Shown: one piece after another, positions 2,521-18,422 of the stretch
Layout of the letters: each line of letters begins with the position of its first letter
How positions within the stretch are numbered: the stretch's first letter is position 1
Assembly (NCBI GenBank): GCA_949012915.1
Contig: CARLBU010000004.1
Span: 79,314-124,416, forward strand
Source: an uncultured Lachnospiraceae bacterium
GTDB lineage: Bacteria; Bacillota; Clostridia; Lachnospirales; Lachnospiraceae
Reading direction: 5' to 3'
DNA: 45,103 nucleotides
The notes under the pieces: model-generated
The model's input: only the letters and a program-made list of their open reading frames with translations
What the model was told of the DNA's origin: nothing
Database searches by the model: none
Program-made: the position numbers and the translations under genes

Positions 2521-4791
2521 ATGATGAGTAACACAACAAAAGAAAAGGGCAAAATTTCAATTATTGCACCACTATCTGGAACGATTGTTGCATTGGAAGA
2601 AGTGCCCGATCCAGTGTTTTCGGAGAAAGCATTGGGAGATGGAGCTGCCATTTTGCCGGAGGACGGAAAGATTTATAGTCCTGTCAACGGAACTGTTGCA
2701 TCAATTGCTGCAACAAATCATGCATATGGGTTTCAATCGGAGGACGGGTTAGATGTCCTGGTACATGTCGGACTGGAAACGGTTGGATTAAATGGAGAGG
2801 GATTTACTCTCTATAAGAAAGAGGGGGACCTGGTAAAAGTAGGAGATTTGGTAGCAGAAGCGGATTTAGAATTGATCAAGGGGAAAAATTTGAATTTAAT
2901 TACTCCGGTGCTTTTGTGTGACGGAATGGACGGAAAGCAGATGGATGTGTGTTCCGGTAAAGTACGGGCAGGAAAGGATGCGGTATTGCTGGTAACGGAG
3001 GAAACGGCGGCTACTGTAGAAGAAAAGGAAACAGGTAGGGATGTTGTTTCGACAGAAACAAAGAGTGCAGGGCAAACGGTATCTGAAAAGAAACAGGAGA
3101 CTTCTGCTTCTAAGACGGCTTCTTCGGGGGGTTCGGAGAAGAAGGCGGGAATTAATTTTGATTTTCTGCAGAAATTGGGAAAAGTGCTGATGACGGTTAT
3201 TGCGGTAATGCCGGCAGCAGGACTGATGCTTAGCCTTGGAAAACTGATTCAGATGGGCGGGGCAGAGATTCCTTTTATTTTCACAATCGGCAGTACAATG
3301 GAGAATATCGGATGGGCGATTATTAACAATCTGCATATTTTATTTGCGGCTGCAATCGGCGGTTCTTGGGCAAAAGAACGTGCGGGAGGTGCATTTGCAG
3401 CGATTATTTCATTTATTTTGATTAACTGTATTACAGGAGCTGCTTTTGGTGTGACCAGCGGAATGTTAAATGAGTCTGGAGCAGTGGTTACTTCTCTTTT
3501 TGGACAGGAAATGCTGGTAGAAAATTATTTTACTTCTGTACTGGGGGCACCGGCTTTAAATATGGGAGTATTTGTAGGAATTATTGCCGGATTTGTAGGT
3601 GGTGTTGTCTATAATAAGTTTTATAATTTCCGTAAATTGCCGGATGCGTTATCATTTTTTAATGGGAAACGGTTTGTACCTTTAGCTGTTATTGCTTATT
3701 CTACAGGAATTTCTCTTGTTTTGGCAGTGATATGGCCGATTGTACAGACAGGAATTAATTCGTTTGGTGTATGGATTGCCAATTCTTCTTCCTCTTCTCC
3801 GGTTTTGGCACCGTTTATCTACGGAACGTTAGAGAGGCTTCTGCTGCCTTTTGGTCTGCATCATATGCTGACCATTCCGATGAATTATACTTCTTTCGGA
3901 GGAACTTATCTAATTCAGACCGGAATCAATGCGGGATCGGAAGTATTTGGACAAGATCCGCTTTGGCTGGCATGGGTAACAGATTTAATTAATTTTAAGG
4001 ATGCAGGAAATATTGCTGCTTATGAAAATTTATTGAATACGGTAACACCGGCTCGTTTTAAGGTGGGACAGATGATTGGTTCAACTGGTCTGCTTTTAGG
4101 AGTGGCACTTGCTATGTATCGGCGGGTGGATGAAGATAAGAAAAAGAATTATCGTTCTATGTTTGTTTCAACTGTGTTAGCAGTATTTTTAACCGGTGTA
4201 ACGGAGCCTTTGGAATTTATGTTTATGTTCTGTGCACTGCCGCTTTATATTGTCTATGCTGTACTGCAGGGGTGTGCGTTTGCAATGGCAGGTATTTTCG
4301 ATCTGCGGCTTCATTCTTTTGGAAACTTAGAATTTTTAACTCGTGTTCCAATGTCATTAAAAGCGGGATTAGGCGGGGATATTATTCATTTTATTATCTG
4401 CTGCGTTGCTTTCTTTGCGATTGGATATGTGATTGCTTACTTTATGATTGAAAAGTTTCAATTTGCTACGCCGGGACGTCTGGGAAATTATACAGATGAA
4501 AATGAGGAATCAGGCGGAGAGGCAGCGGCTTCTGATTCTGCGAAAAAGGGCGGACAAAACAGCCAGCCAGAGCGGATTATTGCGTTATTAGGCGGTCGGG
4601 AAAATATTATTTTAGTGGATGCTTGTATGACACGTTTAAGAGTAACGGTAAAGAATCCAGAACAGGTTGCAGATACTGCTGCATGGAAAGCAGAAGGAGC
4701 ACTGGGGTTGGTGAAAAAGGACAATGGAATTCAGGCAATCTATGGACCGAAAGCAGATGTATTAAAATCGGATATCAACGATATTCTTTAA
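2521..4791 (+). CDS. PTS glucose/maltose-family transporter; fused EIIA-EIIC-EIIB
   Basis: The N-terminal ~150 aa is an EIIA-Glc domain (..GDGAAILPEDGKIYSPVNGTV..HVGLETVGLNGEGF..). An ST/K/E-rich linker follows, then a multi-TM EIIC domain. The C-terminal EIIB carries the phospho-Cys motif ACMTRLRV. Confidence 0.85.
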   Translation: MMSNTTKEKGKISIIAPLSGTIVALEEVPDPVFSEKALGDGAAILPEDGKIYSPVNGTVASIAATNHAYGFQSEDGLDVLVHVGLETVGLNGEGFTLYKKEGDLVKVGDLVAEADLELIKGKNLNLITPVLLCDGMDGKQMDVCSGKVRAGKDAVLLVTEETAATVEEKETGRDVVSTETKSAGQTVSEKKQETSASKTASSGGSEKKAGINFDFLQKLGKVLMTVIAVMPAAGLMLSLGKLIQMGGAEIPFIFTIGSTMENIGWAIINNLHILFAAAIGGSWAKERAGGAFAAIISFILINCITGAAFGVTSGMLNESGAVVTSLFGQEMLVENYFTSVLGAPALNMGVFVGIIAGFVGGVVYNKFYNFRKLPDALSFFNGKRFVPLAVIAYSTGISLVLAVIWPIVQTGINSFGVWIANSSSSSPVLAPFIYGTLERLLLPFGLHHMLTIPMNYTSFGGTYLIQTGINAGSEVFGQDPLWLAWVTDLINFKDAGNIAAYENLLNTVTPARFKVGQMIGSTGLLLGVALAMYRRVDEDKKKNYRSMFVSTVLAVFLTGVTEPLEFMFMFCALPLYIVYAVLQGCAFAMAGIFDLRLHSFGNLEFLTRVPMSLKAGLGGDIIHFIICCVAFFAIGYVIAYFMIEKFQFATPGRLGNYTDENEESGGEAAASDSAKKGGQNSQPERIIALLGGRENIILVDACMTRLRVTVKNPEQVADTAAWKAEGALGLVKKDNGIQAIYGPKADVLKSDINDIL

Positions 4792-4846
4792 AAAATAGAA
4801 CGAGAATGGGTGATCTCGTTTAAGAAAATAGGAGGGAATAGAACAG

Positions 4847-5728
4847 ATGAAGCTGTTGACTTTAAATACACACAGTCTTCAAGAAGAGAATTATCTGCAG
4901 AAGCTCGATTTCTTTCTTTCTGTTATTCAGAAAGAAAAACCCGATTTGATCGCTTTGCAGGAAGTGAATCAGTCTCTGTCAGCACCTTTTGCAGATGCAA
5001 AGCTGCTGCAGGGCTGGGTTCCCTGCCCGGATGCCGTGCCGATTCGTCAGGATAACCATGCTGCACAGGCAGCATTTCGGCTGCATCAGGCGGGAATTCC
5101 CTGTTCTTGGACTTGGATCTCGGCAAAGATAGGATATGATATCTATGATGAGGGAATCGCCGTATTGGCTATTAATCAAAAACTAACCGAGATGGAATCT
5201 TTTTTTATCAGTGGTTGTCAGGACTATAAAAATTGGAAAACACGCCGGGTATTAGGCGTGCGGACAGAGAAGAGTGATCACTGGTTCTATACGGTTCATA
5301 TGGGCTGGTGGGAAGATGAAGAAGAACCTTTTTTGGCACAGTGGAAACGGCTGAATACTCGGCTGCAGCAGAAAGGGGAGGAATCTGTGATCTGGCTGAT
5401 GGGGGACTTTAACAGTCCGGCAGAATTTCGTGGACAGGGTTATGATTGTATCAGTGGGGATGGATGGCTGGATACTTATAATCTGGCAGGGCAAAAGGAC
5501 AGCGGGATTACAGTAGAGGGCTGTATTGATGGATGGAGAGAATTTTCTCAGGAGCAGGACAGACCGGAGGGAATGAGAATGGATGTGATTTGGTGTAATA
5601 AAGAGATGCCGATTTCGTATTCTAAGGTGCTGTTTAATGGAGAAAGAGAACCAAAGGTATCGGATCATTTTGGAGTTTTGATAGAGACAGAGGAAGAAAT
5701 CATGCAAAAGATGAAAGGAGAAAGATAG
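4847..5728 (+). CDS. Endonuclease/exonuclease/phosphatase-family protein, MapP-like (maltose-6'-phosphate phosphatase candidate)
   Basis: EEP catalytic signatures are present: LTLNTHS, ALQEVN, GDFN and SDHFGV. It sits between the PTS gene and malQ, as mapP follows malT in Enterococcus. Confidence 0.6.
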   Translation: MKLLTLNTHSLQEENYLQKLDFFLSVIQKEKPDLIALQEVNQSLSAPFADAKLLQGWVPCPDAVPIRQDNHAAQAAFRLHQAGIPCSWTWISAKIGYDIYDEGIAVLAINQKLTEMESFFISGCQDYKNWKTRRVLGVRTEKSDHWFYTVHMGWWEDEEEPFLAQWKRLNTRLQQKGEESVIWLMGDFNSPAEFRGQGYDCISGDGWLDTYNLAGQKDSGITVEGCIDGWREFSQEQDRPEGMRMDVIWCNKEMPISYSKVLFNGEREPKVSDHFGVLIETEEEIMQKMKGER

Positions 5729-7222
5729 ATGAAACGTTCAGCAGGTATTTTACTTCCCATTACCAGTTTGCCTTCCCGCTATGGGATTGGCTGTTTTTCA
5801 AAGAGTGCATATGATTTTATAGACTGGCTGAAAGAAGCCGGACAGACTTATTGGCAGATTTTGCCGCTTGGACCTACCAGTTATGGAGATTCTCCTTATC
5901 AGTCATTTTCTACTTTTGCAGGAAATCCTTATTTTATTAGTTTGGAGGCACTGATAGAGGAAGGGGTTTTGACAGAGGAGGAGTGTGAAGAGGCGGATTT
6001 TGGAAGTCAGTTAGAAGATATTGATTATGAGAAACTCTATCAAAATCGGTATCCTTTGCTTCGAAAGGCGTATGAACGCAGCAAGGTTAGTGAAAATGCG
6101 GATTATCTGCGGTTTGTAGAGGAAAATAAGTGGTGGCTTTCGGACTATGCGTTGTTTATGGCGGTTAAGGATCGGTTTGAGGGCGTAGCATGGACGCAGT
6201 GGGCAGAGGATATTCGGCTGCGTTGGGGATTTGCGATGGATTATTATCGCAGGGAGTTATATTTTGAGATAGAATTTCAGCAGTATATGCAGTTTAAGTT
6301 TTTTGAACAGTGGAGGCGGTTAAAGGCGTATGCCAATCAGAAGGGGATTGCCTTGATTGGGGATATTCCTATCTATGTGGCAATGGACAGTGCGGATACT
6401 TGGGCACATCCAGAATTGTTCCAGTTAGATGAACAGAATGTACCTTGTGCGGTAGCAGGATGTCCGCCGGATGGGTTTTCGGCAGACGGGCAGCTTTGGG
6501 GGAATCCTTTGTATCGCTGGGAGTATCATAAGCAGACTGGATATGAATGGTGGGTTTCAAGACTGGCTTATTGTTTTCGGCTGTATGATGTTGTGCGGAT
6601 TGATCATTTTCGGGGATTTGATGAGTATTATTCGATTCCTTATGGTGCGGAATCGGCGAAGATTGGGCATTGGGAAAAAGGTCCTGGGATTGAGCTGTTT
6701 CGCTGTGTAGAGCAGCGGCTTGGATGGCATGAGGTAATCGCAGAGGATTTGGGGTATGTTACGGATTCGGTGCGGCAGTTGGTTGCAGACAGTGGATTTC
6801 CGGGAATGAAGGTGTTGGAGTTTGCTTTTGATTCTAGGGATTCTGGATCGGCAAATGACTATCTGCCTCATAATTATATGGAAAATAGTGTGGCTTATAC
6901 AGGGACTCATGATAATGAGACAATCTGCGGGTGGTTTGAGTCGATTTCAAAGGCAGAGCAGCAGATGGCAAGGGAGTATCTTTGTGATCTTTATACGCCG
7001 AAGGAGTTGTTGTATAAGGCGTTTATTGCTTTGGTGATGCGAAGTAATGCAAAGACTTGTATTATTCCAATGCAGGATTATCTTGGGTATGATAATACAT
7101 GTCGGATTAATACGCCTTCTACAGTGGGGACGAACTGGAGGTGGCGTTTGACGGAAGAGGATTTGTCAAAGGAATTGCAGGAAGAGATTTTGGGTATTGC
7201 AAAGCGGTATGGGAGGATTTAA
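5729..7222 (+). CDS. malQ: 4-alpha-glucanotransferase (amylomaltase, GH77)
   Basis: 497 aa with a typical GH77 N-terminus MKRSAGILLPITSLPSRYGIG and conserved regions (..GDIPIYVA.., ..HFRGF..). Its start abuts the stop codon of the upstream gene. Confidence 0.9.
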   Translation: MKRSAGILLPITSLPSRYGIGCFSKSAYDFIDWLKEAGQTYWQILPLGPTSYGDSPYQSFSTFAGNPYFISLEALIEEGVLTEEECEEADFGSQLEDIDYEKLYQNRYPLLRKAYERSKVSENADYLRFVEENKWWLSDYALFMAVKDRFEGVAWTQWAEDIRLRWGFAMDYYRRELYFEIEFQQYMQFKFFEQWRRLKAYANQKGIALIGDIPIYVAMDSADTWAHPELFQLDEQNVPCAVAGCPPDGFSADGQLWGNPLYRWEYHKQTGYEWWVSRLAYCFRLYDVVRIDHFRGFDEYYSIPYGAESAKIGHWEKGPGIELFRCVEQRLGWHEVIAEDLGYVTDSVRQLVADSGFPGMKVLEFAFDSRDSGSANDYLPHNYMENSVAYTGTHDNETICGWFESISKAEQQMAREYLCDLYTPKELLYKAFIALVMRSNAKTCIIPMQDYLGYDNTCRINTPSTVGTNWRWRLTEEDLSKELQEEILGIAKRYGRI

Positions 7223-8687: not shown

Positions 8688-9706
8688 ATGGAGGACAGTA
8701 TTGGAAGAATCTGCTGCCGGTTATTTTTATCAATCTTTTGGGTATGCTGGTGCTGGCTTTGTTTTTAATGGCTAATGGGAATGTTGTTTCGGTTGTTTTG
8801 TTTATTGTAGTTGTTTGGACAGTGGTTTTTATTTTTTATGTCTGTGTTCTTTATGGTATAAGAAAAAGATATTTTCGTCAGTTGTTAGAGACGGCGGAGC
8901 AGTTAGAGGAGCGGTATTTAATACCGGAGGTGATTGCTGTGCCAAAGAGAGCAGGGGAACAGGTGTTTTATCAGATTATGAAACTGGCGGAAAAGTCGAT
9001 GCTTGAAAAGATTGGTGAGGTGCAGAGGGAGCGAAAGGAGTATAAAGAATATATTGAACAGTGGATTCATGAGGTAAAAACGCCGATTACCGCAATAAAG
9101 CTGATATGTGTAAATAATCGGTTTGAGTTTACCAGGGATTTGCTGGCGGAATTGGAAAATGTAAATCGGTTTACAGAGCAGACCCTCTATTATGCCCGCA
9201 GTGAACATACAGAAAAAGATTATTTGATTCGGGAAGTTAGGCTTGGGGATATGGTACATGAGGCGATTGGGGAGAATAAATATCTTCTTCGGCAAAGCAA
9301 TATGACGGTTCTAGTGGATGAGATGGAATATTGTGTTTATACCGATAGTAAGTGGGTGCAGTTTATTTTGAATCAGATTATTAGTAATGCGGTAAAGTAT
9401 CGTACCGAGCAGCCGGTGCTGCATTTTTTTGCAGCAGAGAAAAAGGGGCAGGTGGTTTTGTATGCAGAGGATAATGGGATGGGCATATCGAAAGGGGATT
9501 TGTGCCGTATTTTTGAAAAAGGATTTACCGGGCAGAATGGGAGGAGGGTTTCTAATTCTACTGGTATGGGGCTGTATCTTTGCAGACGTCTTTGTGATAA
9601 GTTAGGAATTGGATTGGCTGTAGATTCGGAAGATTCGGAAGAAAAGGGAACTATGGTGTCCCTTTCTTTTTATAGAAATGACTTTGTGGATGGAGTGCAG
9701 AATTGA
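8684..9706 (+). CDS. Sensor histidine kinase (BceS-like intramembrane-sensing type)
   Basis: Two N-terminal TM helices with a minimal extracellular loop, an H-box HEVKTPITAIKL, and an HATPase_c domain (..DNGMGIS.., ..GTGMGLYL..). Confidence 0.85.
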   Translation: MNGGQYWKNLLPVIFINLLGMLVLALFLMANGNVVSVVLFIVVVWTVVFIFYVCVLYGIRKRYFRQLLETAEQLEERYLIPEVIAVPKRAGEQVFYQIMKLAEKSMLEKIGEVQRERKEYKEYIEQWIHEVKTPITAIKLICVNNRFEFTRDLLAELENVNRFTEQTLYYARSEHTEKDYLIREVRLGDMVHEAIGENKYLLRQSNMTVLVDEMEYCVYTDSKWVQFILNQIISNAVKYRTEQPVLHFFAAEKKGQVVLYAEDNGMGISKGDLCRIFEKGFTGQNGRRVSNSTGMGLYLCRRLCDKLGIGLAVDSEDSEEKGTMVSLSFYRNDFVDGVQN

Positions 9707-9823
9707 TCGGATGGATCGATTCTGCACTTCTTACATTTTTGTAAGAAGTGTGTAAGGAAACTTGATACCAAAATGTTTGCAGGTTCGTTATAATAAGAGC
9801 AGAAAAAAGGAAAAGGAGAGAGA

Positions 9824-10612
9824 ATGTATATGATTTTAGAGTTGGAACATATTCAAAAATATTATGGAAATAAAGGAAATCTGACAAAAGCGATTAAAGA
9901 TATTAGTTTTTCGGTGGAAGCAGGTGAATTTCTTAGTATTATGGGAGCTTCTGGTTCCGGGAAAACAACACTGCTTAATTGTATCTCTACGATTGATACG
10001 GTAAGTGCAGGTCATATCTATTTGGATGGAACAGATATAACGGAGATAAAGCCAAAGTCGCTTGCTCGGTTTCGCAGAGAAAATTTGGGTTTTGTGTTTC
10101 AAGATTTTAATTTGTTGGATACACTGACCATTTCCGAAAATATTGCATTGGCACTGACAATTAATCGGATGCCTGCAAGGATGATTGAGAAAGCTGTTTT
10201 AGAAATGGCAGAACAGTTGAATATTTGTGATATTCTTGATAAATATCCTTATCAGGTATCTGGAGGGCAGAAGCAGCGTTGTGCCTGTACCAGGGCAATG
10301 ATTCATAAGCCGAAGCTTTTGTTAGCGGATGAACCGACCGGGGCTTTGGACAGTCATTCGGCACAGATGCTGTTATCTACGATTCAAGGGATTCATAGAC
10401 AGATTGGAACAACGATTTTAATGGTGACACATGATGCTTTTACAGCTAGTTATGCTGAGCGGATTTTATTTTTGCAGGATGGGGAAATTTTTATGGAATT
10501 GTATAAAGGGAGTGACAGCAGAAGTGCCTTTTTTCAAAAGATTTTAAATGTGCTGACTATGATGGGAGGAGGAAAGAGTCATGTATGTGAAACTGGTTTT
10601 TCGAAATGCTAA
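9824..10612 (+). CDS. ABC transporter ATP-binding protein (BceA-like)
   Basis: Walker A GASGSGKTT, signature SGGQKQR and Walker B LLLADEP. Confidence 0.9.
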   Translation: MYMILELEHIQKYYGNKGNLTKAIKDISFSVEAGEFLSIMGASGSGKTTLLNCISTIDTVSAGHIYLDGTDITEIKPKSLARFRRENLGFVFQDFNLLDTLTISENIALALTINRMPARMIEKAVLEMAEQLNICDILDKYPYQVSGGQKQRCACTRAMIHKPKLLLADEPTGALDSHSAQMLLSTIQGIHRQIGTTILMVTHDAFTASYAERILFLQDGEIFMELYKGSDSRSAFFQKILNVLTMMGGGKSHVCETGFSKC

Positions 10613-12794
10613 GCGGTCGGTAAGGGATTATTTAGTTTATGTTGTAACTATGACGATATGTGTAACGCTGTTTTATTCGTTTTTGTCTATTTCCAGCAGA
10701 TATTATAAGCCGGATATTGGAAGTGAGTATGATTTTACGATGCTTAGTGACGGAATGAAAGCGGCCGTCTGTATGATTACATTGTGTTTGGCTTTTTTAA
10801 TCTGGTTTGTGAATCGATATATGCTGCAGCGGAAGCAGAAAGAGTTTGCCCTTCAGTTGATTATGGGAATGGAGCAAAAGACGGTTGCGGGGCTTTTCTT
10901 TGCGGAAACGCTGATAATGGGAATGATTTCTATCGGACTGGGAATTTTTTTTGGTGTGTTTTGTTCTCAGTTTATTACGGCAATGTTATTGACTTCTTAT
11001 GGGAAAACGTATCAGTTGGCATGGACACTGTTTCCAGATACGGTATTGCTGACGGCAGTGTTTTTTATTTTAAGTTTTTTTGCAGTGGGAAGTTTGAATA
11101 CTTATATGATTCGAAAGACGAAAATTGTTGCGATGCTTTCGGCGGATAGAGAGAATGAGCCTGAATTGAAGAAGAGCCGTTGGATTTTTGCAGTGGTGAG
11201 GATTTTCGAAGGATTTATGCTTTGGAGACTTATAACTGGGATACGGAAGGTTTGGTTTTATTATGACAGCCGTTTTGCTGTTCCTGTACAGGTTATGTTC
11301 TGGGGGAATCTTTTTTTTCCGGCTGTTACATTAGGCTGCTTTTTATTGTGGATTGTCCGAAGGAAAAAAAGAAAGGATTCTTCCTTACTTTTGGGACTGT
11401 TGGTGTGTTCGGTTTGTAATGCTTTTTTGGCAGCCAGTGTACCGGGTATAATCCATCAATATTATCTGCCGTTGGGGTCGGGGATAAAAAATCAATATCT
11501 GGTGTTTCTTTTGGCGGATCTGCTGTTTTTTATCTGTGATTTGATCTATTTGGCAAGCGGTCAGATTGCCGCATGGAAGGAAAAGTCACCGGAACATAAG
11601 TATAATGGAGAAAATTTGTTTTTTTGGGGACAGATTATTTCGAAATTAAATACCACCAGTAAGACAATGACGCTGATCAGTATTACTTTAGTACTTGCGA
11701 TTGTGATGTTTATTGCGGCACCTATTTTAACAGGTTGGGCTTCTGGATATTTGGACAGCCGTTCGATGTATGATGTGCAGATTTTTTCCAGATATAATCA
11801 GGTCTATCAAGAAGAATATTTGCCGCAGGATGACTATTTGCTGGCAAGTGATTTTTTGGGAGAGCATAGGATCGAGATTGCTTCTGATTGTACCTTTTAT
11901 CTGTATTTACCTAAGAAAGAAGAGTTTCATAATCGGAAGAAATATGAATTTCCTGCTGTGGCGATTTCTCTTAGTGATTATAATAGGATACTGACGATGT
12001 TAGGGAAAGAACCGATTTTTTTAGAGGAGAATGAATTTACAACACAGTGGAAATCCGTTGCAGCAAAGGAGGAACGGGACGATTTTCTTAGAGAACATAC
12101 CCATATCCTAACAGATGCCGGGGAATTGACGCTTTCAGAAGAGTCTTATTATCAGCATGAAATCGGACAAACGGTTTACAATTCCTATACCAATGTTTTG
12201 TATGTCTTTCCAGATTCGATTTGTGAAAGTTTGCTTCCGGTTATGCGGGATCGCTATATTCTAACAGAGAGAGGGATTTCTTATGCGGATGCTTGTAAAT
12301 TGGAAAGGGAATTTATAAAAGAATATCCCGAGCAGACAGAGAATGGCACAGCATATGGAATTCGTTTGCGTACCCTGCAGATAAATGGTACAAAGGCCAA
12401 TAATTTTGTTCTGCAGGCGGGGATGATTTATGCTGCCGTTGTGTTGATGGTAATCTGTCTTACCATACTTTCTCTGCAGCAGCTTTTGGATGCAGGGCAG
12501 TATCGCTATCGTTTTTCCGTACTTCGAAAATTGGGAGTGGAAGAGCAGAGAATCAAAAGACTTGTATTTCGGCAGTTAGGAGTGTGGTTTGGACTTCCCG
12601 TTGTTGTTGCAGTAGGGGCGGCTGTCGTTGTGCTTGTTTACTTTGTTCAGACGATATCGGCAGAAATTTCGGCATATATTGGGAGTAGGGCACTGCTGAT
12701 ACAGATAGGTGCAACTGGGGGAATTCTTATGCTGCTGCTGATTTGTTATTTTATTAGTACTTGGATTTTATTTCAGTACTCTATTAGTGAATGA
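10581..12794 (+). CDS. ABC transporter permease, FtsX family (BceB-like, large extracellular domain)
   Basis: 737 aa; the N-terminus MYVKLVFRNAKRSVRDY is typical of BceB-type permeases. It has ~10 TM segments with a long loop, and overlaps the ATPase gene. Confidence 0.85.
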   Translation: MYVKLVFRNAKRSVRDYLVYVVTMTICVTLFYSFLSISSRYYKPDIGSEYDFTMLSDGMKAAVCMITLCLAFLIWFVNRYMLQRKQKEFALQLIMGMEQKTVAGLFFAETLIMGMISIGLGIFFGVFCSQFITAMLLTSYGKTYQLAWTLFPDTVLLTAVFFILSFFAVGSLNTYMIRKTKIVAMLSADRENEPELKKSRWIFAVVRIFEGFMLWRLITGIRKVWFYYDSRFAVPVQVMFWGNLFFPAVTLGCFLLWIVRRKKRKDSSLLLGLLVCSVCNAFLAASVPGIIHQYYLPLGSGIKNQYLVFLLADLLFFICDLIYLASGQIAAWKEKSPEHKYNGENLFFWGQIISKLNTTSKTMTLISITLVLAIVMFIAAPILTGWASGYLDSRSMYDVQIFSRYNQVYQEEYLPQDDYLLASDFLGEHRIEIASDCTFYLYLPKKEEFHNRKKYEFPAVAISLSDYNRILTMLGKEPIFLEENEFTTQWKSVAAKEERDDFLREHTHILTDAGELTLSEESYYQHEIGQTVYNSYTNVLYVFPDSICESLLPVMRDRYILTERGISYADACKLEREFIKEYPEQTENGTAYGIRLRTLQINGTKANNFVLQAGMIYAAVVLMVICLTILSLQQLLDAGQYRYRFSVLRKLGVEEQRIKRLVFRQLGVWFGLPVVVAVGAAVVVLVYFVQTISAEISAYIGSRALLIQIGATGGILMLLLICYFISTWILFQYSISE

Positions 12795-12931: not shown

Positions 12932-12960
12932 AGAAAAGGAAGATACTTTATAAAAAATAA

Positions 12961-12995
12961 AAATACAACACTTGTTAGTAAAATGTTGTATTTTT
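12961..12995. other. Left recombinase core-type site: two ~14-bp inverted arms around the 7-bp spacer GTTAGTA
   Basis: aaatacaacacttGTTAGTAaaatgttgtattttt. Its reverse complement is nearly identical to the site at 13748-13784, so the two sites are in inverted orientation. Confidence 0.6.
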
Positions 12996-13015
12996 ATATT
13001 TTTTATATCGGTGTT

Positions 13016-13122: not shown

Positions 13123-13713
13123 TTAGAGTGTAATTTTTAAATACACTTCATCTCTTTCGTCTTGTTCAATACTTAAATATCGCTTGGTAATGCTGTAGGA
13201 GGAGTGATTGTAAAGATCCATTAAAAGGGCTGGAGGGGTTCCCTGTTTCCACGCATGATAACCGAATGTCTTCCTTAGAGAGTGGCAGCTGATATGTTGA
13301 TCCAGTCCAGATGCTTTGGCAGCAGTACAGATAATTCGGTAGGCTTGAGAACGACTGATTGGCTCATTCTTTCCTTTCTGACTTAAGAAGAGATACTGCT
13401 CTTTTTCATAGGGTTTTTCCTGGAAGGAATACGAGAGGTAGTTTTTTAGGGTGGTGCAGATAGAGCGGTTTAATGCAATCGTGCGGGATTTTCCAGTCTT
13501 TTGTTCTATTACTTCTAAATGTTTTTTCATGGTTTTAGTATGGTCATCATAGATATCGTTCCATTTTAATGTGAGAATATCGGAGATTCGCAGTGCTGTA
13601 TTTAGTCCCAATATAATCAGGGTATAGTTTCTTGGCTGAGGTTTTTGCAGCAAATAATAATTTTTAAATTGGTTCAGTGCATCTTTGCTTTTAATAGGCT
13701 GTGTTGTGCTCAT
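13123..13713 (-). CDS. Small tyrosine site-specific recombinase (catalytic domain only, FimB/FimE-sized)
   Basis: 196 aa with catalytic residues in order: R in ..LNTALRISD.., K in ..KTGKSR.., HxxR in ..HSLRKTFG.., H in ..LYNHSS.., and Y in ..ITKRYL... There is no N-terminal core-binding domain. Confidence 0.8.
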   Translation of the reverse strand: MSTTQPIKSKDALNQFKNYYLLQKPQPRNYTLIILGLNTALRISDILTLKWNDIYDDHTKTMKKHLEVIEQKTGKSRTIALNRSICTTLKNYLSYSFQEKPYEKEQYLFLSQKGKNEPISRSQAYRIICTAAKASGLDQHISCHSLRKTFGYHAWKQGTPPALLMDLYNHSSYSITKRYLSIEQDERDEVYLKITL

Positions 13714-13747
13714 GATAGATCCTCCGTTCGTTGAATTTTGCTTTCTT

Positions 13748-13784
13748 AAAAATGCAACATTTTACTAACAAATGTTGCATTTTC
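13748..13784. other. Right recombinase core-type site: aaaatgcaacattt-TACTAAC-aaatgttgcatttt
   Basis: 14-bp inverted arms flank a 7-bp asymmetric spacer. It is the inverted partner of 12961-12995, and the two bracket the recombinase gene. Confidence 0.6.
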
Positions 13785-13826
13785 ATATTGGCACAGAAGA
13801 CATGGAGAAAACAAGGAGGTTTTTAG

Positions 13827-14081
13827 ATGTTAAGACTGACTCTAAGTACAGAAGAATACCTGATGATAGGGGATAATATTAAGATTGCATTTTTAGGAGG
13901 CAGTAAAAGCCATCTTCGAATTCTGATTGATGCACCAAAGGAAGTCGGTGTAGTGAGAAGTAAAGTGATGGAACAGAACGTGCCGGAAGAAGAGAGGGGA
14001 TCTCTTCCTCAATATTATGCAGAACCGGAATTGGCAGAACGGTTTCGAAAAAAGAAATTTTCTTCGAAGGCAGGAAGCTAA
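13827..14081 (+). CDS. csrA: Carbon storage regulator CsrA
   Basis: The N-terminus MLRLTLSTEEYLMIGDNIKIAFLGG..LRILIDAPKEVGVVRSKV matches the CsrA fold consensus (MLVLTRK..IGDDI..GIDAPK). It is immediately upstream of flagellin. Confidence 0.85.
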   Translation: MLRLTLSTEEYLMIGDNIKIAFLGGSKSHLRILIDAPKEVGVVRSKVMEQNVPEEERGSLPQYYAEPELAERFRKKKFSSKAGS

Positions 14082-14345: not shown

Positions 14346-15929
14346 ATGGTAGTACAACACAATCTTACAGCAATGAATTCTAATCGTATGCTAGGTATCA
14401 CAACCAAGGCTCAGGCAAAATCCACAGAAAAATTATCATCTGGTTATAAGATCAATCGTGCAGCAGACGATGCAGCAGGTTTGGCAATTTCCGAAAAAAT
14501 GAGAAAGCAGATCCGAGGACTGACACAGGCTTCTTCTAATGCACAGGACGGAATCAGTGCCGTACAGACAGCAGAAGGTGCATTGACAGAAGTACAGGAT
14601 ATGCTTCAGAGAATGAATGAATTGGCAGTAAAGGCAGCAAATGGAACGAATTCTTCTTCTGATAGAGATGCGATTCAGGCTGAGATCGATCAGTTGGTAA
14701 CAGAAATCGATCGTGTATCGGAGACAACGAAGTTTAATGAAACTTATTTGTTAAAAGGGGATGTAAATGCTGCAAAAGACACAAATTTCCAATATAAAGA
14801 AGTAGATGTGATTAGCCAAGACCTTTACTATGTAGAAGATAATACCGTTAAGACTTTATCGAAAGGGACGTTGAAAACAGCAGTTGATTCAACAAAAGTA
14901 TATTATAGTGACAGTACAGGTGCAACCTATGGAGTAGCGATTGCATCTAGTGATTCTGGTAATTTCTTAAATAATTCGGAAGCAGTTTTCACGGATAGTA
15001 CAGGTAAGTATTTGAAGAAAGTGGGAGATGAATATTATCAAGTTGCTTCTGGGGAAGCATATGATTCAACAATAACTTATTATTCTTCTAGTGCTGGAAC
15101 AGGTGATATAAAGAGCCAAGCAGTTGCAATTGCTAGTAATACTATAACTGATACTGGTGCACATTATAAGCTGAAGACAGAAGTATATGATTCAGATGGA
15201 AATAGGAAAGAGATAGGGACAGATATTGGTGCGACTGCTGCAGATATATCGAAGTATTATTCTACGCTTGCTCCTGTAAAACTTGCTGTAGATTCTGTCG
15301 CTTATTCTGACTATACAAGTAAGGGCGTAGTTCAATTTATTGATAAGGATGGTAATGAGATTGCTGCGAATGGTTTAGATAAATATATTAACAACAACGG
15401 TAAGTTAGATCCTAATGCAGAACTGTATTTAAAGACAGGAGAGGGTGCAACTGACCGTCAGTTGGCAACACAGGCTGACGTGGATAGATTGTTAAGTTAT
15501 ACAGATAAATTTGATGTAGGTGCTTTAACTTTGAATCTTCATGTAGGTGCAGATGCTACAACCAATAATCAGATTTCTCTTGATATAAAGTCTATGAGTG
15601 CTAAGGCAATTGGTGTCACTGGTTTAAAGGTAAATGGAGAAGATGATACAAATGCATTAAATGCAATTGAAACAATTAAAGCGGCATTGAATAAGGTTTC
15701 TGATCAAAGAGCTGCCCTTGGTGCTGTTCAAAACCGTTTAGAGCATACAATTAATAACTTAGATAATGTAGTGGAGAATACGACAAGTGCTGAAAGTCAA
15801 ATTCGTGATACGGATATGGCTACTGAAATGGTAAGATATGCGAATAATAATATTTTGGCTCAAGCTGGTCAATCTATGTTAGCTCAAGCAAATCAGAGCA
15901 ATCAAGGAGTTCTTTCTCTTCTTGGTTAA
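14346..15929 (+). CDS. Flagellin
   Basis: A conserved N-terminal D0/D1 region (..[24 protein letters not shown]..) and C-terminal region (..[25 protein letters not shown]) flank a long variable central domain. Confidence 0.95.
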
Positions 15930-16038
15930 TAGTAATTGTTGTAAAAAACAGATTAGATTAAATGGTATGAATATCTATAGGCGGTGCGGTTTTTACACCG
16001 CCTATTGTTATTTATTCTTTATTTTGTAGGAGTATAGT

Positions 16039-17244
16039 ATGAAGCTATTTATTTATGATTGGAATTTTATTACAAAGTATGATTTGTATAGAGCAATGCA
16101 GAAACAGGGGATTGAATATGATTTATTTAATTCAAAGTCAAATCCTAGAGTAAATTCACAAAGTAAGCAGTTTCGGGAGGATTTGGAAAAAGCCTTAGAT
16201 AATAAAAAATATGATGCAATTTTTTCTATTAATTTTTTTTTGGAGTTGGCAGAGGCAGCACATGCAAGAAATATACTTTATATTTGTTGGACATATGATA
16301 GTCCAGCCTTAGGCATAGCAAATGAAACTCATTTTTTTGACACCAATCGTATTTTTTTATTTGATTCTTCGGAATATGAGGAATTTCAGGAACATGGAGT
16401 AAAAAATATTTTTTATTATTTACCTTTGGCAGCTGATGCTAGACGTTTAAGTCGAATGAAACCTACTCCCATGGGAAGGATGAAATATCATGCAGATATT
16501 TCTTTTGTTGGGCAGCTTTATCAATCAGATATGGATAAAATGTTTCCCCTATTTGATGAATATGGTGCAGGCTATATTGCAGCACTGATTAATATACAGT
16601 TAAATGTTTATGGTACGAATTTTATTCAAGAATTAATTAATGAAAATCTTATTAAACGTCTATGCAATCAAAAAGTAACAGAAGCTTTATTGAAAAATTT
16701 GAATCATAATTTTTTTCATGATGTAGAAGAAGTAAAAAGTTGGGGATTGATTGCTTTTCTTTTAAAGGCAGTAACCAATAAAGAGAGAATACTTTTACTT
16801 ACACTATTGGCAAAATATTATCATGTAAAGTTGTTTACCATAAATAGTCCGAAACTTCCAAATGTAAAGATATGTGAACCTGTAGATTATAGATATGATA
16901 TGCCGCTTGTATTTAAGTGTAGTAAAATAAATTTAAATATTACATTGCGAAATATTCGCCGGGGTATCCCTCAGCGAGTGATTGATATTATGGGCTGTCA
17001 TGCATTAGCAATGACAAATTATCAAGAAGATTTAAATGAATATTTTAAAGACGGATAAGATCTTTTGATATATAGTTCTATGGAAGAGGCATTAGATAAG
17101 TGCAAATATTATCTAAGTCATGAAAAGGAAGCAGAAAAAATTAGACAAAACGGTTATAAAATTGTCAAAGATAAGTTTAGTTATGAACATCAATTAAATC
17201 GAATATGGGAACTCTCAGGTTTGAAAAACAAGTTATCAAAATAA
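16039..17244 (+). pseudogene. CgeB-like glycosyltransferase (DUF3880 family) interrupted by an in-frame TAA at 17056-17058. The same frame continues to 17244 and encodes the conserved C-terminus.
   Basis: Before the stop the translation is ..NEYFKDG. After it, ..DLLIYSSMEEALDKCKYYLSHEKEAEKIRQNGYKIVKDKFSYEHQLNRI aligns with the paralog's FKRDETLVYFTNPAEF..YQKLIEGHTYWHRI. The TAA sits where a Glu (GAA) is expected. Confidence 0.6.
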
Positions 17245-17267: not shown

Positions 17268-18422
17268 ATGAAGCTAACATATCTTATATGGGGCTATCCT
17301 TATGATAAAGCTATTCTAAAAGCATGGAAAGAGATGGGAATTTTGGTAAATACAATTCTGCTTTCACATGAATTGATACAGAATTGGGAAGAAAAAAAGG
17401 AAATACAACAGAAAGAAAAAGTGGAATCTCTTTTGCTTTCCTTGAAAGAGCAGATTCGAGCAGCAGCGGGTGATATGGTGTTTTCTGTTAATTTTTTATC
17501 GTTTATATCGGATTTTTGCCAAAGAGAAGCCATTCCTTATTGCAGTTGGATCTTACAGCTTCCTAATTTTGATTTATATACAGCTTCTGTGCGGAATGGA
17601 TATAATTATTTTTTTGTATGTGATAGTTATTTGGTAGAAAAACTATGGCAATTAGGAATTACAAATGCCTTTTTTCTGCCTGATGCTGTAGAAGTAGATA
17701 GTGTACGAGAAATTGTGCCTATGGAAAGAGAAGTATGTTTTCTTGCAAAATGCCCAGAGGATGTTTTAAATACAAAGGAAATGTCCATTTACAGTAAAGG
17801 CTATCTAGATGCTTTTATTCATGCACAAAGGGTATTATATGGGGCATATATTCTAGAAAATGGATTATTGCTTCGGGTACAACAGGAGTTTTTAAAGGGA
17901 AATATCCTTCCAGAGAATCTTCTTTTAGAAATGCAGAAACTTTTTGTGGCAGATCGATATTTTGCACCTGTATGTACTAGAATACAGCAGCAAATATTTT
18001 TACAAAATTTTGCTTCCATTATGACAATTTATTCTAACGGAGAGTTTCCAGATTGTAATTCTAAAAAAAAGGCTTTGGTGGAAGATGAAATAGCGAGGAA
18101 GAAAATTTATGCCGGAAAAGAATTTACTTTGGTATTAGCACCTCATACTTTACATAATGGTATTCCAAGGGATACGTTGGAAGTAATAGCAGCAGGAGGT
18201 TTTCCTATTGTTGGATTTCAGAGGGATTATGCTTATTTTTTTAAGAGAGATGAAACATTAGTATATTTTACAAATCCTGCAGAGTTTTCACGTGCGATTG
18301 TACGATATGGAAATCATATAGAAGAAAGAGAACGTGTAAAGGAGGCGGCATATCAGAAACTGATAGAGGGACATACTTATTGGCATCGAATTGCTGCAAT
18401 ATTAGAGGTATGGAAAAAGTAA
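17268..18422 (+). CDS. CgeB-like glycosyltransferase family protein (flagellin-modification locus)
   Basis: A 385-aa paralog of the upstream gene, starting at MKLTYLIWGY after the SD gcgaggaa. The conserved C-terminus is ..VYFTNPAEFSRAIVRYGNHIEERERVKEAAYQKLIEGHTYWHRI. Confidence 0.65.
   Translation: MKLTYLIWGYPYDKAILKAWKEMGILVNTILLSHELIQNWEEKKEIQQKEKVESLLLSLKEQIRAAAGDMVFSVNFLSFISDFCQREAIPYCSWILQLPNFDLYTASVRNGYNYFFVCDSYLVEKLWQLGITNAFFLPDAVEVDSVREIVPMEREVCFLAKCPEDVLNTKEMSIYSKGYLDAFIHAQRVLYGAYILENGLLLRVQQEFLKGNILPENLLLEMQKLFVADRYFAPVCTRIQQQIFLQNFASIMTIYSNGEFPDCNSKKKALVEDEIARKKIYAGKEFTLVLAPHTLHNGIPRDTLEVIAAGGFPIVGFQRDYAYFFKRDETLVYFTNPAEFSRAIVRYGNHIEERERVKEAAYQKLIEGHTYWHRIAAILEVWKK

Follow-up and report, generated by a model that had tools for sequence, protein, structure and literature searches.

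A glycosyltransferase (GT) gene lying directly downstream of a flagellin gene is interrupted by an in-frame ochre codon in the stretch of DNA analyzed here (the window: 45,103 nucleotides from an uncultured Lachnospiraceae bacterium; GenBank assembly GCA_949012915.1, contig CARLBU010000004.1, positions 79,314 to 124,416 of the forward strand). The interruption is very probably a genuine and very recent clonal nonsense allele at which translation terminates in the ordinary way, leaving the lineage with a GT that is probably inactive and with a flagellin glycan that is altered or missing. It would have arisen by a spontaneous C-to-T change at position 17056 that turned codon 340 from CAA into TAA in one clonal lineage of this species, and the TAA allele would then have spread clonally to several samples. 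As such, the case is a fresh instance of an already known kind, a strain-specific nonsense pseudogene at a surface-antigen modification locus.

The interrupted reading frame and its intact alleles

The features of the GT gene, in window coordinates, are as follows.

16039-17058, plus strand: truncated GT open reading frame (ORF) with an ATG start, 339 amino acids (aa) and the premature TAA
17056-17058, plus strand: premature ochre stop, CAA (Gln340) to TAA, with T17056 derived from C
17059-17244, plus strand: orphaned 3' part of the GT gene, 61 sense codons and the natural TAA, encoding the final beta-strand of the GT-B fold and the three helices at its C terminus
17065-17244, plus strand: possible restart ORF of 59 aa (P0122) from a TTG six bases after the stop, publicly annotated as a gene

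The sequence, the ORF list, and the translation agree that the ORF ends in ...NEYFKDG followed by TAA. Beyond this codon the frame remains open for 61 sense codons (DLLIYSSMEEALDK...KNKLSK; the full stretch is DLLIYSSMEEALDKCKYYLSHEKEAEKIRQNGYKIVKDKFSYEHQLNRIWELSGLKNKLSK) as far as a second, family-typical TAA at 17242-17244, and the continuation of 62 codons described in an earlier first-pass annotation of this DNA is borne out when the final stop is counted. When the premature stop was filled in, the resulting 401-aa sequence matched two Pfam domains above their gathering thresholds, PF12996 (DUF3880/YkvP_N; residues 83-161, E value of 4e-18, 65.7 bits against a cut-off of 25.2) and PF13524 (Glyco_trans_1_2; residues 272-389, E value of 4e-23, 82.4 bits against a cut-off of 25), the second of which spans the stop. 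The tail also aligns, as the same annotation had noted, with that of an intact paralogous GT encoded immediately downstream, with BLASTP pairing FKDGxDLLIY with FKRDETLVYF (20% identity, E value of 9e-13). Because full-length 401-aa orthologs exist at 99 to 100% identity, the openness of the frame past the stop is, on this comparison, far beyond chance expectation.

A search of a large protein collection identified 1,291 homologs at an E value of ≤1e-10, almost all of which were 395 to 410 aa in length. The 90% cluster of the GT product comprises the intact 401-aa proteins P0001, P0124, and P0127, the 339-aa protein P0121, and tail fragments of 59 and 54 aa that derive from gene callers. P0124 equals the conceptual protein of the window if residue 340 is read as Gln, and it is encoded on one Logan contig from each of four other runs (SRR27010433, SRR9052927, DRR775640, and SRR22017155). 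The sole difference of these contigs from the window, over 7,607, 3,273, 2,569, and 1,680 aligned bases, respectively, is C in place of T at 17056. The longest of these alignments, of 7,607 bp, is that of locus L011, and the DNA of the orphaned tail is base-for-base the same as the matching part of the intact allele. Codon 340 is CAA in every one of the intact alleles examined (L008 to L014) and likewise in more distant conspecific alleles that are approximately 99% identical.

As these near-isogenic intact alleles carry CAA, the mutation is, judged from the alleles compared, a C-to-T transition at 17056 that converts a Gln codon to TAA, and not the G-to-T change from GAA that had initially been proposed. 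Nor does the stop replace a conserved Glu. In an alignment of 116 sequences (115 orthologs and the downstream paralog) the codon 340 column is variable, with K in 66, R in 27, E in 10, Q in 5, and D in 4 sequences, and the lineage itself has Gln; the Glu noticed in the first-pass annotation is a feature of the distant, 20% identical paralog and is not conserved at the family column. From the three options which that annotation had left side by side, namely, a recent nonsense mutation, a sequencing error, and programmed readthrough, the CAA alleles situated one base away in 7,607 single out the first. Among the GTDB species representatives there was no exact match to a 41-mer spanning the stop in which either C or T was allowed at 17056, so the representative of this species is either missing from that collection or different at the site.

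The TAA allele is independent of any single assembly. Public records contain the exact 339-aa product (P0121) on 15 contigs, and the allele was identified in ENA assemblies (ERR3199646 and ERR3199684), in Logan assemblies (ERR3199589, ERR3199684, and SRR20488358), and in metagenome-assembled genomes (MAGs) at NCBI (GCA_948806775.1, GCA_949064275.1, and GCA_948762045.1). In these carriers the whole 1,206-bp GT gene is 100% identical to that of the window, and the contigs differ from the window by zero to three bases over up to 13 kb; they are therefore, by sequence similarity, representatives of a single clone. A sequencing or assembly error, with C as the true base at 17056 and an intact GT gene, would be in keeping with the single-base nature of the difference, which is typical of error, and with the existence of isogenic contigs carrying C. 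However, T recurs in separately made assemblies from all three sources, covering no fewer than four runs as well as three MAGs in which the gene is identical throughout, and there is no homopolymer at the site (GGA-C/TAA-GAT), so an error at this position is very improbable.

The lost C-terminal part and alternative explanations of the stop

The intact GT was modeled with AlphaFold2 from the 116-sequence alignment, giving a mean predicted local distance difference test (pLDDT) score of 94.4 and a predicted template modeling (pTM) score of 0.93. In the model, residues 340 to 401 contain a strand (342-345) and three helices (348-359, 362-379, and 382-393), with pLDDT values of approximately 98 to 99 up to residue 390 and lower values only in the last residues. 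A Foldseek search of the PDB returned GT4-type GT-B enzymes as the top matches (MshA, PglA, HepE, GlgM, TreT, and BshA), with a probability of 1.00, a template modeling (TM) score of approximately 0.55 to 0.6, and 8 to 12% identity. The model matches such enzymes, including MshA (3c48/3c4q), PglA (8dqd), HepE (4xsu), and BshA (3mbo/5d01), across both Rossmann-like domains, and the C-terminal strand and helices removed by the stop belong to the fold that they share. The GT differs from them in its sequence, which is only 8 to 12% identical, and a profile search of PDB sequences with the GT gave no match to any solved relative. On inspection of the alignment by eye, the canonical EX7E glutamates were not evident in the corresponding region, where the conserved residues are R304, P311, R313, and D316.

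The part of the enzyme beyond the stop is as conserved as the remainder, with a mean majority-residue fraction of 0.69 compared to 0.63. Of its 55 columns, 11 are at least 90% conserved, and Tyr358 is invariant. The tail is retained in all 115 orthologs, each of which ends at reference positions 395 to 401; none ends near residue 339, and the alternative that the TAA is the natural stop of the family does not apply. Ordinary termination at the TAA would yield a 339-aa product in which the nucleotide-sugar-binding domain is without its final beta-strand (342-345) and its three C-terminal helices (348-393). As the lost strand and helices are conserved in every ortholog, misfolding or inactivity of the truncated enzyme is the most likely outcome.

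A number of points weigh against the reading of the stop as a clonal knockout. T at 17056 is known from assembled contigs and MAGs, and some of the 15 TAA contigs are reassemblies of the same runs, as with ERR3199684, which ENA and Logan each assembled. An accession block is shared by three of the TAA runs, which are probably from one project, and the MAGs may come from the same runs; independent support for TAA thus amounts to at least four runs from what are probably two projects, rather than 15. A literature search on the run accessions returned no paper. The step from truncation to loss of activity is drawn from structure and conservation only, and literature searches gave no experimental instance of flagellin glycosylation by the DUF3880 family. 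Finally, a TTG six bases past the stop could permit reinitiation of an ORF that spans nearly all of the lost tail, and conserved residues in the region aligned with the GT4 donor-binding motif (R304, P311, R313, D316, and Q329) lie upstream of the stop; both of these points are taken up below.

Reinitiation at the TTG at 17065 would give rise to a split enzyme, in which fragments of 339 and 59 aa assemble into a GT that is at least partly active. Bacterial ribosomes are known to reinitiate at a start codon close to the stop at which they have terminated, and the 59-aa ORF has been annotated by gene callers. The only Shine-Dalgarno-like signal upstream of the TTG, however, is a weak GGA approximately 10 nt away, whereas the neighboring genes have AGGAG or GAGGA, and residues 340 to 342, which include part of the strand at 342-345, would be absent from both fragments. 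None of the 115 orthologs is naturally split at this point, and the arrangement arose by one recent mutation with no sign of later adaptation; a functional split enzyme is accordingly considered quite unlikely. If TAA were instead decoded, through programmed readthrough or codon reassignment, the full-length enzyme would be made, and the frame past the stop is indeed open and perfectly conserved. Yet this preservation is accounted for by the very young age of the mutation, there being no other difference from the CAA allele. TAA is the terminator of 26 of the 38 long ORFs in the window, including those of flagellin and rpsO, and UAA is generally the least leaky stop codon in bacteria. Sister strains, including the isogenic CAA strains, and all other species have a sense codon (K, R, E, or Q) at the site, with no conserved recoding site, and the 121 nt beginning just before the stop fold no better than shuffled sequences (minimum free energy of -12.4 kcal/mol compared to -13.0 ± 2.8 kcal/mol; z = 0.22). 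A search for a suppressor tRNA, which covered the 45-kb window, found no tRNA gene. Decoding of the codon is, on these grounds, hardly credible.

The truncated protein could also retain enough activity for the allele to be neutral or hypomorphic rather than a knockout. Besides the position of the conserved residues in the region aligned with the donor-binding motif, the spread of the allele to several samples is compatible with this. Set against it are the modeling of the lost core beta-strand and three helices at very high confidence, the presence there of the invariant Tyr358 and 10 more columns with conservation of 90% or higher, and the lack of any homolog ending near residue 339. In GT-B enzymes, moreover, the nucleotide-sugar-binding domain is completed by the C-terminal helices, which pack back over the region between the two domains, and sufficient residual activity is judged unlikely. 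A different possibility, implied by the term "phase-off" in the first-pass annotation, is that the stop represents the OFF state of a reversible high-frequency switch. Surface-glycosylation genes are often phase variable, and CAA and TAA states both exist on an identical background. The change is, however, a single transition in a nonrepetitive context (GGA-CAA-GAT), outside any repeat tract and involving neither a slippage tract nor an inversion; the poly-T runs of the GT gene show no length variation and no gaps in 14 alleles. Each sample contig shows one state, the Logan contigs are unbroken through the site, and the nearest inverted repeats are 2.3 kb upstream, where they flank a recombinase and not the GT gene. 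Next to no weight can be given to such a switch. A clonal nonsense allele with ordinary termination remains the best explanation of the data.

Strain-specific nonsense pseudogenes in surface- and flagellin-glycosylation loci have the same characteristics: a single-base stop in a conserved enzyme, an intact sister allele, an undecayed 3' frame, and a location in a hypervariable surface-antigen cassette. Inactivation of glycosylation-island genes by point mutation occurs in pathogens. The present case differs from those in pathogens in that the organism is a gut commensal, an uncultured member of the Lachnospiraceae, and that the role of the enzyme family in flagellin modification is inferred. 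Both the intact and the truncated GT products are already in public databases, and the family is catalogued (PF13524 and PF12996). Taken alone, the allele is a textbook strain-level event and matters little. The CAA and TAA strains nevertheless form a natural isogenic pair, one base apart across at least 7.6 kb, that could, given isolates or enrichments, be used to address whether GT-B enzymes of the DUF3880 type glycosylate Lachnospiraceae flagellins, which are immunodominant antigens in Crohn's disease (PMC10441350). In annotations, a pseudogene or a strain-specific disruption should be recorded at this locus, and not two genes.

The flagellin cassette and other disruptions at the locus

The GT gene begins 110 bp downstream of the flagellin gene and is, by gene order, the first of two GT genes in a cassette, the remaining members of which are as follows.

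13827-14081, plus strand: csrA, directly upstream of the flagellin gene
14346-15929, plus strand: flagellin gene, 527 aa, with Flagellin_N and Flagellin_C domains; presumed GT substrate
15986-16001, plus strand: terminator-like hairpin between the flagellin and GT genes, a consensus match only
17268-18422, plus strand: intact paralogous GT with DUF3880 and Glyco_trans_1_2 domains, 384 aa
18446-20620, plus strand: intact last cassette gene, 724 aa, with a C-terminal radical SAM domain (the ORF is open from 18380; 18446 is the probable start)

The order tyrosine recombinase, csrA, flagellin, GT, GT, and in some cases the radical SAM protein is retained in all close loci from other Lachnospiraceae species (L015 to L025), and the pair of GT genes is kept in every close orthologous locus. 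A flagellin gene is directly upstream of the GT gene in L015 to L029 and lies beside many of the more distant family members. Within the species, comparison of L095 and L097 with the window revealed that between 14623 and 16717 identity drops to 60 to 80% in the flagellin variable domain and in the first GT gene alike, while the flanks are 98 to 100% identical and the recombinase protein is the same; the replaced alleles encode a flagellin of 529 aa and a GT of 409 aa. It thus appears that strains exchange the flagellin gene and its GT gene as a single block. This covariation, together with the conserved synteny, supports a role of the GT in flagellin modification, although we infer that role from gene arrangement. 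If it holds, the flagellin glycan of the TAA lineage would be expected to be missing or altered, with the other genes of the cassette untouched. Substitution by the intact paralog is unlikely, since the two GTs are only 20% identical and are conserved as a pair, which suggests that they are not redundant.

The first-pass annotation had termed the enzyme a CgeB-like flagellin-modification GT. The first half of this name is supported by the two Pfam domains and by the JGI naming of relatives as "spore maturation protein CgeB," while the link to flagellin derives from synteny. Bacillus subtilis CgeB and the YkvP-type spore-surface GTs contain the same two domains (PF13524 and PF12996), but the window GT is found in the context of flagellin and not of spore coat or crust genes, and the likeness is one of domains and names. 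Similar to Maf (DUF115/MAF_flag10), FlmG (a TPR-containing GT), and Clostridioides difficile CD0240 (GT2), the window GT is positioned directly 3' of a flagellin gene with further modification enzymes. It belongs to a different family, as a Pfam scan identified PF13524 and PF12996 as the only domains at an E value of ≤0.01, with no MAF_flag10, TPR, or GT2 domain. No NCBIfam model matched either GT, and a scan for promoters performed at chance level (20 found compared to 19.8 expected). Literature searches combining CgeB, flagellin, and glycosyltransferase, and flagellin glycosylation with Lachnospiraceae, returned nothing relevant. One DUF3880-containing GT, CA_C2193 of Clostridium acetobutylicum, is listed in a sugar-modification neighborhood that includes a Maf-like protein, a listing of context without functional data (PMC4000134).

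The radical SAM domain of the last cassette protein occupies its C-terminal third, and the N-terminal region of approximately 460 residues has no Pfam or NCBIfam match. Flagellin-GT cassettes do not usually include a radical SAM enzyme, and this protein is uncharacterized.

Further disruptions were observed at the locus. In L010 (4308-5891; also L100), the flagellin gene carries R89* (AGA to TGA, at window position 14610), which splits it into 88 and 438 aa, while the GT gene is intact there; this change is from a single assembly, ERZ27298413. In L003, a contig of the TAA clone from ERR3199684, a T-to-A nonsense change at window position 13491 truncates the recombinase, with 74 aa called compared to 196 aa. 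In another lineage, a GT ortholog of 58% identity (L101, 460-1591) is frameshifted next to A-runs to give 254 and 110 aa; this is likewise from a single assembly and may be an indel error.

Three nonsense changes were thus present among the few conspecific contigs examined (GT Q340*, flagellin R89*, and the recombinase change in L003), and two of the approximately five point differences inside the clone of the window, in the GT and recombinase genes, are nonsense. The nonsense share in the clone hints that loss of function has been selected, with numbers that are far too small to test. It is possible, but doubtful, that Q340* is not a product of neutral decay but belongs to a set of several knockouts that arose independently and were selected at a flagellin cassette which, in this gut commensal, is hypervariable and exposed to the host. 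Were this so, immune pressure (immunoglobulin A or TLR5) or phage pressure would have led the lineage to alter or lose its flagellar glycan, and the adjacent recombinase-bearing inverton would provide a reversible layer of control.

The neighboring recombinase and its inverted repeats

Upstream of csrA the window contains a recombinase gene flanked by inverted repeats, which form part of the context of the locus and not of the nonsense mutation.

12954-12996, no strand assigned: left arm of a 43-nt inverted repeat, a 13-7-13 palindromic site
13123-13713, minus strand: tyrosine recombinase, 196 aa, consisting of the catalytic domain alone and about the size of FimB/FimE
13747-13789, no strand assigned: right arm of the 43-nt inverted repeat, a 13-7-13 site between the recombinase gene and csrA

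The arms are 88% complementary and each is lox-like, and their 7-nt spacers, GTTAGTA and TACTAAC, are reverse complements of each other, which is the geometry expected for inversion. The recombinase gave subthreshold matches to models of the FimB/FimE type ("tyrosine-type DNA invertase") over almost its full length. Similar pairs of inverted repeats are present at the orthologous recombinase in five other species (L015, 2869-2903/3648-3682; L018, 3042-3073/3772-3803; L019, 1363-1395/2192-2224; L021, 2827-2859/3655-3687; and L025, 3030-3060/3812-3842), and in L019 to L021 the recombinase gene is opposite in orientation relative to csrA and the flagellin gene. No inversion of the segment was seen within the species, as all of the long contigs read share one orientation. 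The recombinase and its repeats may constitute a self-encoded, putative inverton controlling csrA and the flagellin gene, and as a lead they hold more interest than the stop codon in the GT gene. A literature search for invertible flagellin, Lachnospiraceae, and recombinase returned only a C. difficile paper.

In a MAG from water-deer colon (L017), where no inverted repeat of ≥16 nt was found flanking either recombinase copy, one contig carries two tandem copies of the recombinase-csrA-flagellin module (3141-5909 and 9669-12202), which suggests that the three genes duplicate as a unit.

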